Source: Escherichia coli (GTDB lineage Bacteria > Pseudomonadota > Gammaproteobacteria > Enterobacterales > Enterobacteriaceae). From it: DNA of 64,000 nt. Below are positions 54,305 through 55,583 of this stretch, piece after piece; positions within the stretch are counted from its first letter, which is position 1, and every line of letters begins with the position of its first letter. Below the pieces are notes generated by a model. The model was not told the origin of the DNA. It worked only from the letters and a program-made list of their open reading frames with translations, and searched no databases. The position numbers and the translations under genes are program-made. The stretch lies in the NCBI RefSeq assembly GCF_045037415.1, contig NZ_CP173438.1. The stretch is one strand, 5' to 3'.

Positions 54305-55264
54305 ATGAAAATTTGTATCGACGACGGCTCCACCAACATCAAGCTGGCATGGACTGAGAATGGCGAACGCCGCAACGCCATCAGCCCGAACAGCTTCAAG
54401 TCGGAATGGTCTGCGCCGTTCGGTGGCATGCAGCCCGCGAACTACATGCTTGATGGCGTGCGCTATGGTTTTGATCCGGTTAGCGATCGCTTTGTCCAGA
54501 CGACCGACACGCAATACCAGTACAGCGATGTGAATGTAATCGCCATTCATCACGCGCTGGTCAAATCAGGCATCACGCCACAGGAGGTGGATGTGGTTGT
54601 CACCCTGCCACTGAGCGAGTATTTCGACACAAACGCACAGCCGGACATGGCCAACATCAACCGCAAAAAAGCGAACGTTATGCGCCCGGTGGAATACCAG
54701 AACGGCGAAGCATTCACTATCCGTAACGTGCGGGTTATGCCTGAATCCATTCCGGCTGGCTTTAAAGCACTGGCTGACATGAGTCCGTTTGAATCCCTGC
54801 TGATTGTGGATTTAGGCGGAACCACGCTGGATGTGGCAAAGGTTCAAGGGCAACTGGCAGGTATCAGCCAGGTGTTTTGCGATCCACACGTAGGCGTTTC
54901 CCTGATGGCCGATGCCGTACTGTCGGTGATGGCCACTAACGGTATGCGCACCAGTCACCACATCGCCAATACCATTATCGAACATCGCCATGATGAAGCC
55001 TGGCTGCGCCAGCACATCCACAATGACGCGCATTACGCCAGCCTGATGGCGGTTATTCGTGAAAAGGAAGAAACACTGAAACAACGCGTGATCCGCTCGC
55101 TGGCGGTTTTTTCGGGTTACGGGCGGGTGATGGTTGTCGGTGGAGGGGCGGAGATTGTGGCACCCGCTATCCGCGAAGTCTGCGGAGTTAATGCGACTTT
55201 CATCGCGGACGGGGTGCCACAGTTTGCTCTGGTTAATGGGCTGTACGCAATGGACAAGGAGTAA
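54305..55264 (+). CDS. parM: ParM/StbA-like actin-type partition ATPase
   Basis: 319-aa ORF with IDDGSTNIKL, YSDVNV..HHAL, VMPESIPAG, IVDLGGTTLD and VGGGAE motifs closely resembling plasmid R1 StbA as recalled from memory. Confidence 0.8.
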   Translation: MKICIDDGSTNIKLAWTENGERRNAISPNSFKSEWSAPFGGMQPANYMLDGVRYGFDPVSDRFVQTTDTQYQYSDVNVIAIHHALVKSGITPQEVDVVVTLPLSEYFDTNAQPDMANINRKKANVMRPVEYQNGEAFTIRNVRVMPESIPAGFKALADMSPFESLLIVDLGGTTLDVAKVQGQLAGISQVFCDPHVGVSLMADAVLSVMATNGMRTSHHIANTIIEHRHDEAWLRQHIHNDAHYASLMAVIREKEETLKQRVIRSLAVFSGYGRVMVVGGGAEIVAPAIREVCGVNATFIADGVPQFALVNGLYAMDKE

Positions 55265-55268
55265 ACCA

Positions 55269-55583
55269 ATGACGACACCAACCAGACGGATAAGTTTCTA
55301 TCTGAAGCCCGCCGCCGTCAAGAGTGAACAGGAGGCGTGCAATTACCTCGATAGCCTGCCAGCCTCCGAACGCAGCCGCGCGCAACGCGCGGCCTTTCTG
55401 GCTGGGCTAGCGCTCATAAAGCGCAACCCAGCATTTGCCTACTGGATGGCCGAATGGCCAGAGGACAACCTCCCCTTCAATACCGTTAGCATCAAGGAAA
55501 CATACCAGGATAATCAGCCTAGCGGAGTTGAATGCAATTTTTATAAAATAAAAAAGAATATTCAGACCTTATTCCCAGAATAA
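55269..55583 (+). CDS. parR: ParR/StbB-like partition adaptor (RHH DNA-binding)
   Basis: ORF-track 55134..55583 trimmed to ATG 55269 with AAGGAG RBS; ISFYLKP...LDSLPASERSRAQRAAFLAGLAL parallels R1 ParR N-terminus. Confidence 0.7.
   Translation: MTTPTRRISFYLKPAAVKSEQEACNYLDSLPASERSRAQRAAFLAGLALIKRNPAFAYWMAEWPEDNLPFNTVSIKETYQDNQPSGVECNFYKIKKNIQTLFPE

Follow-up and report, generated by a model that had tools for sequence, protein, structure and literature searches.

A stretch of 64,000 nucleotides (nt) of Escherichia coli DNA (contig NZ_CP173438.1; here called the window) carries an integrated P2-like prophage, in which two genes for an actin-type partition system, parM and parR (54305-55583, + strand), directly follow the replication gene A. 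We found that these genes and a candidate centromere at the A/parM junction make up what appears to be a complete, selectively maintained type II (ParMRC-type) module. In our judgment, the chances are about even that this module serves to segregate phage genomes while they replicate as circles, once a cell is infected or the prophage is induced.

The parM gene (54305..55264, + strand) encodes an actin-like segregation ATPase of 319 amino acids (aa). The Pfam domains StbA_N (E value 3.7e-82) and ParM C-terminal domain (PF21523; 2.1e-68) jointly covered residues 1-316, and PHROG 691 ('partition protein') matched at 1.5e-89. The protein aligned end to end with the solved R1 ParM (1mwk; E value 8.1e-93), with ~50% identity by eye. 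The segments IDDGSTNIKL, VMPESIPAG, DLGGTTLD, and GGGAE, which we take to be phosphate and adenosine motifs of actin-fold ATPases, were identical or nearly so in this alignment. In a search of NCBIfam, neither ParM nor ParR scored above a cut-off, and the sole item returned was PRTRC_D, with 19.6 bits against a cut-off of 214.8. By its StbA_N and C-terminal domains, ParM is a predicted actin-fold ATPase of the type II (ParMRC) class.

The parR gene (55269..55583, + strand) begins after a gap of 4 nt and encodes a 104-aa adaptor of the ribbon-helix-helix type. Its start is the ATG at 55269; the TTG at 55134, inside parM, merely heads the mechanically called open reading frame (ORF). The Shine-Dalgarno sequence of parR (AAGGAG, 55256-55261) lies within the 3' end of parM, and the translation of parR is probably coupled to that of parM. 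ParR matched Pfam Plasmid_stab_B (E value 9.4e-29) and PHROG 2515 'partition protein' (1e-54). The sequence of the pB171 ParR crystal structure (2jd3) was matched weakly by the single protein (E value 0.012) and at 6.8e-14 by a profile of seven phage ParR sequences. The N-terminus of ParR (MTTPTRRISFYLKP) is invariant and its tail is conserved, with a hypervariable linker at residues ~64-93. When it was compared with the R1-type ParR of an IncF plasmid, similarity was seen in the N-terminal strand (RRISFYLKP vs RRTIAFKLNP), in the first helices (ERSRAQRAAFLAGLAL vs ERSRLNRAALTAGLAL), and in the C-terminal tail (KKNIQTLFPE vs KKNAMKLIN). Across alleles the tail follows the pattern (K/A)(K/G)NI(Q/R)xLFPE; it is predicted to be helical at residues 91-101 and resembles the R1-type tail. 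An AlphaFold model of the ParR monomer, built on a 7-sequence alignment and of moderate to low confidence, shows helices at 14-29, 32-52, 54-61, and 91-101 and disorder at 66-90 (mean predicted local distance difference test score 62.6). A Foldseek search of the PDB with this model returned nothing significant (best E value 1.8). Because of the low confidence of the model and the lack of a significant Foldseek match, the ribbon-helix-helix fold is assigned from the sequence profiles.

Upstream of parM, the region 54162-54276 is a candidate centromere or operator to which ParR would bind. It contains two 42-nt repeat units that are 83% identical. Unit 1 (54162..54203, + strand; dyad ACGGGACTTACGAATCCCGT at 54178-54197, with GGG-N10-CCC at 54180-54195) falls within the final 22 codons of gene A, at the 3' end of that gene. 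Unit 2 (54235..54276, + strand; dyad ACGGGATTTCAGAATCCCGT at 54251-54270) has its dyad in the 76-nt gap between A and parM, 52 nt ahead of the parM ATG. Both 20-bp dyads conform to ACGGGAyTTmmGAATCCCGT, and they are 73 bp apart. The dyad pattern had no further matches in the window, with a chance expectation of 0.03. Across a set of 86 related loci, which comprises IMG/VR viral contigs, phage records, RefSeq genomes, and the window, the dyad arms CGGGA/TCCCG are retained, while the central 8 nt vary.

The same arrangement was detected in more distant prophages. In Plesiomonas and Hafnia, where ParM is 62% identical and the DNA upstream of parM has no continuous similarity to that of E. coli by eye, exactly two GGG-N10-CCC sites precede parM. 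They are 72 and 73 bp apart, and their distances to the parM start are 131/59 and 128/55 nt, vs 125/52 nt in E. coli; the background density of GGG-N10-CCC is 0.2-0.4 per kb. As RNA hairpins, the E. coli dyads have folding energies of -9 and -10.7 kcal/mol (z about -3), and both Hafnia sites and one of the two Plesiomonas sites fold no better than shuffled sequences. Since the triplets and their spacing are conserved and hairpin stability is not, a protein-binding site is favored over an RNA hairpin. That the dyads are intrinsic terminators of the minus strand, or RNA hairpins, was likewise rejected as the principal explanation: no minus-strand gene ends there, and hairpin stability is not kept in Hafnia and Plesiomonas.

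In strain SWHEFF_58 (NZ_CP055048.1, 8998-10418), a P2-like prophage is integrated beside prpC. Its A gene differs and is shorter, an extra ORF is present, and parMR is preceded by a 69-nt remnant of a P88-type A tail. Its homology to the window begins at ~54163, which is the start of the first repeat; thus, both repeat units appear to travel with parM and parR as one block. Strain CUVET19-1704, without parMR, diverges a few bases past the A stop codon and retains unit 1 alone. The R1-type iteron array that defines a canonical parC was not found upstream of parM. The upstream dyad repeats pointed to in a preliminary description of this DNA, which had been made from the letters alone, thus took the form of two 42-nt units with 20-bp dyads. 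Its other structural claims, a ParM/ParR pair of the R1 type in the order parM-parR after the replication gene and an integrated P2-like prophage as the carrier, were confirmed by the Pfam, PHROG, and R1 alignments together with the gene coordinates, and by the host genes dmsA and STnc130 that flank the integrase. The database and profile search that it proposed for the two proteins gave significant ParM and ParR family matches.

The cassette is under strong purifying selection. In the 86 loci, parM was intact and encoded 319 aa in every case, with a mean pairwise synonymous difference per site (pS) of 0.075, a nonsynonymous value (pN) of 0.0055, and a pN/pS ratio of 0.07. For ParR, pN/pS was 0.13-0.22 in codons 1-63, 0.74-0.78 in the linker, and 0.16-0.20 in the last 11 codons. 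This pattern fits a DNA-binding domain, a flexible or disordered linker, and a ParM-binding tail. The loci yielded 48 distinct ParR sequences with two main types of N-domain, and residues 1-18 were almost invariant. These data contradict the idea that the cassette is a decaying, nonfunctional relic of an ancestral plasmid or phage-plasmid. A relic would agree with the absence of the cassette from some relatives and with a function that is not obvious in an integrative phage. Full-length parM in 86/86 loci, the domain-specific constraint on ParR, and a position that is kept across genera 38-46% divergent in ParM make this reading barely credible.

ParR is far more variable than its partner. The window ParR is ~52% identical to that of phage P88, though the two ParM proteins are 98.7% identical, and among P88-like phages in general ParR alleles share ~52-68% identity, while ParM proteins share 97-99%. 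DNA similarity within parR stops at codon 18 or at about codon 64, depending on the strain (codon 18 in the comparison with P88), and recombination breakpoints were placed at 55323 and ~55459 of the window. The 3' third of the window allele is richer in AT. Neither allele has lost the N-terminal strand or the tail, so the allele difference does not imply that centromere specificity has changed.

Comparison with phage genomes assigned the prophage to a known lineage. A 1.4-kb region with the cassette was 96.5-99.9% identical (megablast) to 14 phage records, among them P88 (NC_026014), 520873, P884B11, Chuche, PhiR44_2, Citrobacter phiSM, and vB_EcoM-569R5, which belong to Xuanwuvirus/Peduoviridae. 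Their annotations name a ParM or partition protein, and they share the order int-C-cox-...-A-parM-parR-cargo-Q(-P-O-N-M). By this gene order and near-identity, the prophage belongs to the P88-like phages (Xuanwuvirus, Peduoviridae). The cassette region was present in 1303 of 5426 complete E. coli genomes (~24%), including sequence type ST131 and O157:H7 strains, and RefSeq names the products 'plasmid segregation protein ParM' and 'plasmid partitioning/stability family protein'. In the literature, the cassette was noted in a survey of the gpA-gpQ locus (Rousset et al. 2022). In the phiSM paper, the gene is counted among 'fitness' factors, and the paper on P88 contains no discussion of parMR. 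The preliminary description had presented a partition cassette in a P2-like phage as unusual. In P88-like phages, however, the cassette is widespread and has already been annotated and published, so that it is not a new kind of system; by the criterion that the description itself had set, its claim of something unusual is refuted.

The same description had also considered that the cassette might be imported plasmid cargo. We searched 72,556 plasmid records by tblastn and found abundant plasmid ParM proteins with 46-52% identity to that of the window, at most ~52%, except in seven records that carry the phage itself; large 'plasmid' records bearing the cassette were 228 kb to 1.4 Mb in size. 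Among 50,697 phage records, the sole other ParM of this family was that of the D6 plasmid prophage (48%). In a search of 5.8 billion proteins, the E. coli phage cluster (at least 91% identity) was separated by a gap from the next relatives, which were found in Hafnia and Plesiomonas (62%), Serratia (57-58%), and Enterobacter (54%). The genomic context was looked up for four of these nearest relatives, one from each of the genera. Every one of them sits between gpA and gpQ of a P2-like prophage, with a Plasmid_stab_B gene downstream; the contigs of two of them measure 465 kb and 2.3 Mb. In a neighbor-joining tree of 108 ParM sequences, the clade of E. coli, Hafnia, and Plesiomonas had a bootstrap support of 60/60, as had the Serratia/Enterobacter clade. 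The union of the two was present in the best tree with a support of 28/60, and a reduced-taxon analysis did not recover a single clade for all phage ParM proteins (33/100). Because of this low support for the union, we claim two robust phage-borne clades rather than a single origin. The G+C content was 50-58% over windows of parMR, 57-59% in gene A, and 30-35% in the adjacent cargo. As plasmid ParM proteins reach at most ~52% identity, the nearest relatives reside in P2-like prophages, and the G+C content equals that of the phage backbone, a recent import from a plasmid is not supported. The parMR pair is a lineage-typical part of P88-like P2-family phages.

A partition cassette on a phage raises the question of whether P88-like phages also exist as stable low-copy circular episomes that are inherited by means of ParMRC. 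This was proposed before: a screen for phage-plasmids by Pfeifer et al. (2020) picked out P88, for which 'episomal and integrative states' were suggested, and an episomal state was also proposed by Rousset et al. (2022). It would account for the presence of a complete partition cassette under purifying selection, and the D6 plasmid prophage does use a homologous ParM. Moreover, one record from a cat E. coli isolate (strain Z1323PEC0009), NZ_CP148288.1, is a circular molecule of 34,461 bp that was deposited as a plasmid and comprises a whole P88-like genome with its integrase. However, the phage in this record is 100.0% identical, over the 10.5 kb compared, to a chromosomal phage of strain Z1323HEC0067, which, judged by strain name, is apparently from the same collection. 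Since such a phage is integrated in that strain, the circle may be an excised replicative form. A second 'plasmid', of 26.8 kb from Shigella boydii, is a linear, IS1-disrupted prophage contig and gives no evidence of an episome. In complete E. coli genomes, 1441 of 1443 places of the cassette region were chromosomal, and in a second count 1779 of 1781. An integrase and a C/Cox switch were present in all E. coli regions inspected (P88, 569R5, the window, SWHEFF_58, and the plasmid record); replication is driven by a rolling-circle initiator, and plasmid-type copy control was not seen. For the episome envisaged in the preliminary description, there is one circular 34.5-kb record vs more than 1400 chromosomal copies. 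Stable episomal carriage is rare at best, and the autonomous replicon in lysogens that characterizes a phage-plasmid was not observed. We regard a plasmid-prophage lifestyle as an unlikely, although not negligible, explanation. If an episomal state is allowed, P88-like phages would be facultative phage-plasmids, which matters for the detection of prophages and for the spread of such elements.

The position of the cassette suggests a different use, in competition. The gpA-gpQ locus is a known P2 defense hotspot (the tin/old position), variable AT-rich cargo lies immediately downstream, and several ParR alleles with a fast-evolving middle stand beside a nearly invariant ParM. ParR and/or ParM, if expressed in the lysogen, could interfere with incoming relatives or with plasmids that have a similar centromere, as in partition incompatibility. 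Several observations argue against this. True hotspot cargo varies, but the cassette invariably comes first behind A and is almost fixed in the lineage: the A-parM junction was present in 1286 E. coli genomes, or 94% of the 1371 in which any part of it was found. PADLOC matched neither ParM nor ParR, and the G+C content of the cassette matches the phage backbone. The invariance of the ParR N-terminus and of the dyad arms is not the diversification of specificity expected in incompatibility arms races, and the pN/pS of ~0.75 in the linker looks neutral rather than positively selected. With no PADLOC match, backbone G+C content, and a junction kept in 94%, the cassette does not fit anti-phage hotspot cargo, and we consider an exclusion function improbable.

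Downstream of parR, the sequence varies between phages. A perfect 9-bp inverted repeat, TGGCACCCT N7 AGGGTGCCA (55632..55656), lies between parR and a convergent cargo gene; transcripts from both directions likely end there, and it likely bounds the module on the right. In the window, two AT-rich genes (30-35% G+C) on the - strand at 55667-57046 fill the gpA-gpQ hotspot slot after parR. One encodes a 280-aa multi-pass membrane protein (PHROG 12528) with a weak PADLOC match to Csx27 (E value 1.2e-5), and the other encodes a 165-aa DUF4760 protein (PHROG 2284). They are a candidate defense or exclusion pair.

The module and its candidate centromere are chromosomal in nearly all occurrences and are well conserved there. 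This would be compatible with a cis effect on the chromosome of the host, in which ParM pushes the ParR-parC complex of the prophage and thereby aids or perturbs the segregation of the surrounding region in the lysogen. However, integration sites differ (dmsA in the window, prpC in SWHEFF_58), so no fixed chromosomal position is served. Conservation tracks the phage lineage across genera, and promoter evidence for expression in lysogens was not found. We therefore consider such a role very improbable.

We next describe the genetic context, which bears on the time at which parMR would be expressed. The prophage is integrated next to host dmsA (42579..45023), which together with the host small RNA STnc130 (45114-45248, 137 bits) flanks the integrase gene (45323..46330). 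STnc130 lies between dmsA and the integrase gene, and the left end of the prophage with its attachment site must lie at most ~70 nt from the STnc130 terminator. At its other end, the window terminates within the capsid/terminase genes. From cox (46831) to parR, every gene is on the + strand. Gene A (51406..54228, + strand), directly upstream of parM, encodes a 940-aa rolling-circle replication initiator that matched PHROG 91 'nicking at origin of replication' (9.5e-275) and PHROG 6857. The A proteins of other P2-like prophages (SWHEFF_58, Plesiomonas, Enterobacter, Hafnia) have 768-835 aa vs 940 here.

In the 76-nt gap between A and parM, a consensus scan detected neither a + strand terminator nor a sigma-70 promoter. 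The gap contains, at 54280..54296 (+ strand), the motif ATTAATCAA (54280-54288) and the Shine-Dalgarno sequence of parM, AAGGA (54292-54296). A string ATTAATCAA...TAAGG precedes parM in three genera (E. coli, Plesiomonas, and Hafnia). The motif is possibly a weak -10 element, whose -35 element would be overlapped by dyad 2.

Farther upstream, a noncoding gap of 322 nt (50409-50730) harbors matches to two Rfam families, isrK (50477-50551, 65 bits) and C4 antisense RNA (50587-50674, 83 bits), as well as a hairpin with a T-run, typical of a terminator, at 50531-50553. A mechanically called ORF over this gap (50420-51037, 205 aa) is probably not a gene. The gap is followed by a gene for a 'derepression protein' (50731-50961), an ORF at 51034-51399, gene A, and parMR. 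RNAs of the C4/CI type are immunity elements in P1 and P4, and the arrangement resembles such an element inside a P2-like phage. Because isrK/C4 is located upstream, A and parMR are probably behind a second immunity checkpoint and made once replication is switched on. A control of A-parMR by the SOS response was also considered and rejected: the LexA box CTGT-N8-ACAG had two matches in the window, both elsewhere and at chance level.

Taken together, the position of parMR on the same strand directly after A and downstream of isrK/C4 suggests that the module is active chiefly during the expression of A. Replication of the P2 type yields monomeric circles. Given these circles, the integrative lineage, and the link of the module to A, the extrachromosomal phase is the best-supported use. 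We propose the following sequence of events. ParR dimers would bind the two GGG-N10-CCC sites, whose distance of 73 bp corresponds to about seven helical turns, and thus form a minimal centromere at the A/parM junction. The conserved C-terminal tail of ParR would capture the ends of ParM filaments, and the ATP-driven polymerization of ParM would push sister phage DNA circles apart. This would take place mainly while A is expressed, that is, on an excised or newly injected circular genome that is replicating. The monomeric circles would spread, so that both daughter cells could inherit phage DNA before integration or lysis. The binding of ParR to its sites, the timing of expression, and the biological pay-off are the parts of this scheme that we infer. 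The preliminary description had mentioned, beside plasmid cargo and an episome, a cytoskeletal component used in another role, and this is the reading we favor, in the sense of an action on the extrachromosomal replicative phase. To the more specific proposal, an actin-type 'viral mitosis' of the P2 family in this phase, with a two-site centromere partly within the 3' end of A, we assign a probability a little short of even.

Several points weigh against segregation during the replicative phase. It is not obvious why rolling-circle products would need active segregation when their packaging is completed in a single latent period. Some relatives (L087, P2, 186, and other phages of the collection) have no parMR, and the module is thus dispensable there. 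Only two candidate ParR sites are visible vs ~ten 11-bp iterons in an R1-type parC, and so small a site may fail to support a segrosome. In the Serratia/Enterobacter clade, the DNA upstream of parM contains a long inverted repeat and no GGG-N10-CCC pair. The ATTAATCAA motif, as a weak promoter of parM itself, makes expression of parMR in lysogens possible. Finally, our literature search returned no report of an experiment on parMR of P88-like phages.

What remains of interest is the functional question and the unusually small candidate centromere. If 'viral mitosis' is true, it could provide a higher replication efficiency or lysogen yield, would be a Gram-negative counterpart of the AlpAC system of a Corynebacterium glutamicum prophage (see below), and would explain the retention, under strong purifying selection, of a 'plasmid' partition system by an integrative element in a quarter of E. 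coli genomes. If the two sites work as a centromere, they would offer a very small natural one for study.

P88, Citrobacter phiSM, and other Xuanwuvirus phages are among the closest known carriers of such a system. They have the cassette in the identical position, with A, parM, parR, variable cargo, and the portal gene Q; their ParM proteins are 97-99% identical to that of the window (94.7% in one fragmented match), and the upstream region has an average identity of 98% in four aligned sequences. The window differs from P88 in its parR allele (~52%, as mentioned) and in its downstream cargo. The P1-like D6 prophage also has a phage-borne ParM, with 48% identity, followed by a StbB-type ParR. 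In contrast to the integrated prophage described here, D6 is a true plasmid prophage of 91 kb, and its upstream repeats, three copies of TCTCAAAT..TCTCA, are unrelated.

The ParMRC system of plasmid R1/NR1 (StbA/StbB, parA locus) shares the order cis site, parM, parR, a ParM of the same length with both Pfam domains, and the ParR layout, with similarity in the N-terminal strand, the first helices, and the C-terminal KKN..L tail. R1/NR1 is a theta-replicating plasmid, whereas the cassette analyzed here is carried by an integrated, rolling-circle P2-like phage. The cis sites differ as well: an R1-type parC consists of two blocks of five A-rich 11-bp direct iterons that end in CCC and flank a TTGACA promoter, whereas here two GGG-N10-CCC dyads are 73 bp apart, the distal one within the coding 3' end of gene A.

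A functional precedent is provided by the AlpC/AlpA/alpS system of the CGP3 prophage of Corynebacterium glutamicum. In this integrated prophage, the actin-like protein AlpC and the adaptor AlpA are induced early and are needed for efficient replication of the phage DNA; AlpA is co-transcribed with AlpC and binds sites upstream of its own operon (PMC4446434). AlpC belongs to a distant actin-like family and not to StbA/ParM, the adaptor is unrelated, and the host is Gram-positive with a different type of phage; we claim no homology. The likeness lies in an actin-like protein with a co-transcribed DNA-binding adaptor on an integrated prophage, and CGP3 serves as a functional model by analogy. If parMR organizes phage DNA during replication or establishment, the AlpAC precedent would be extended to enterobacterial phages.

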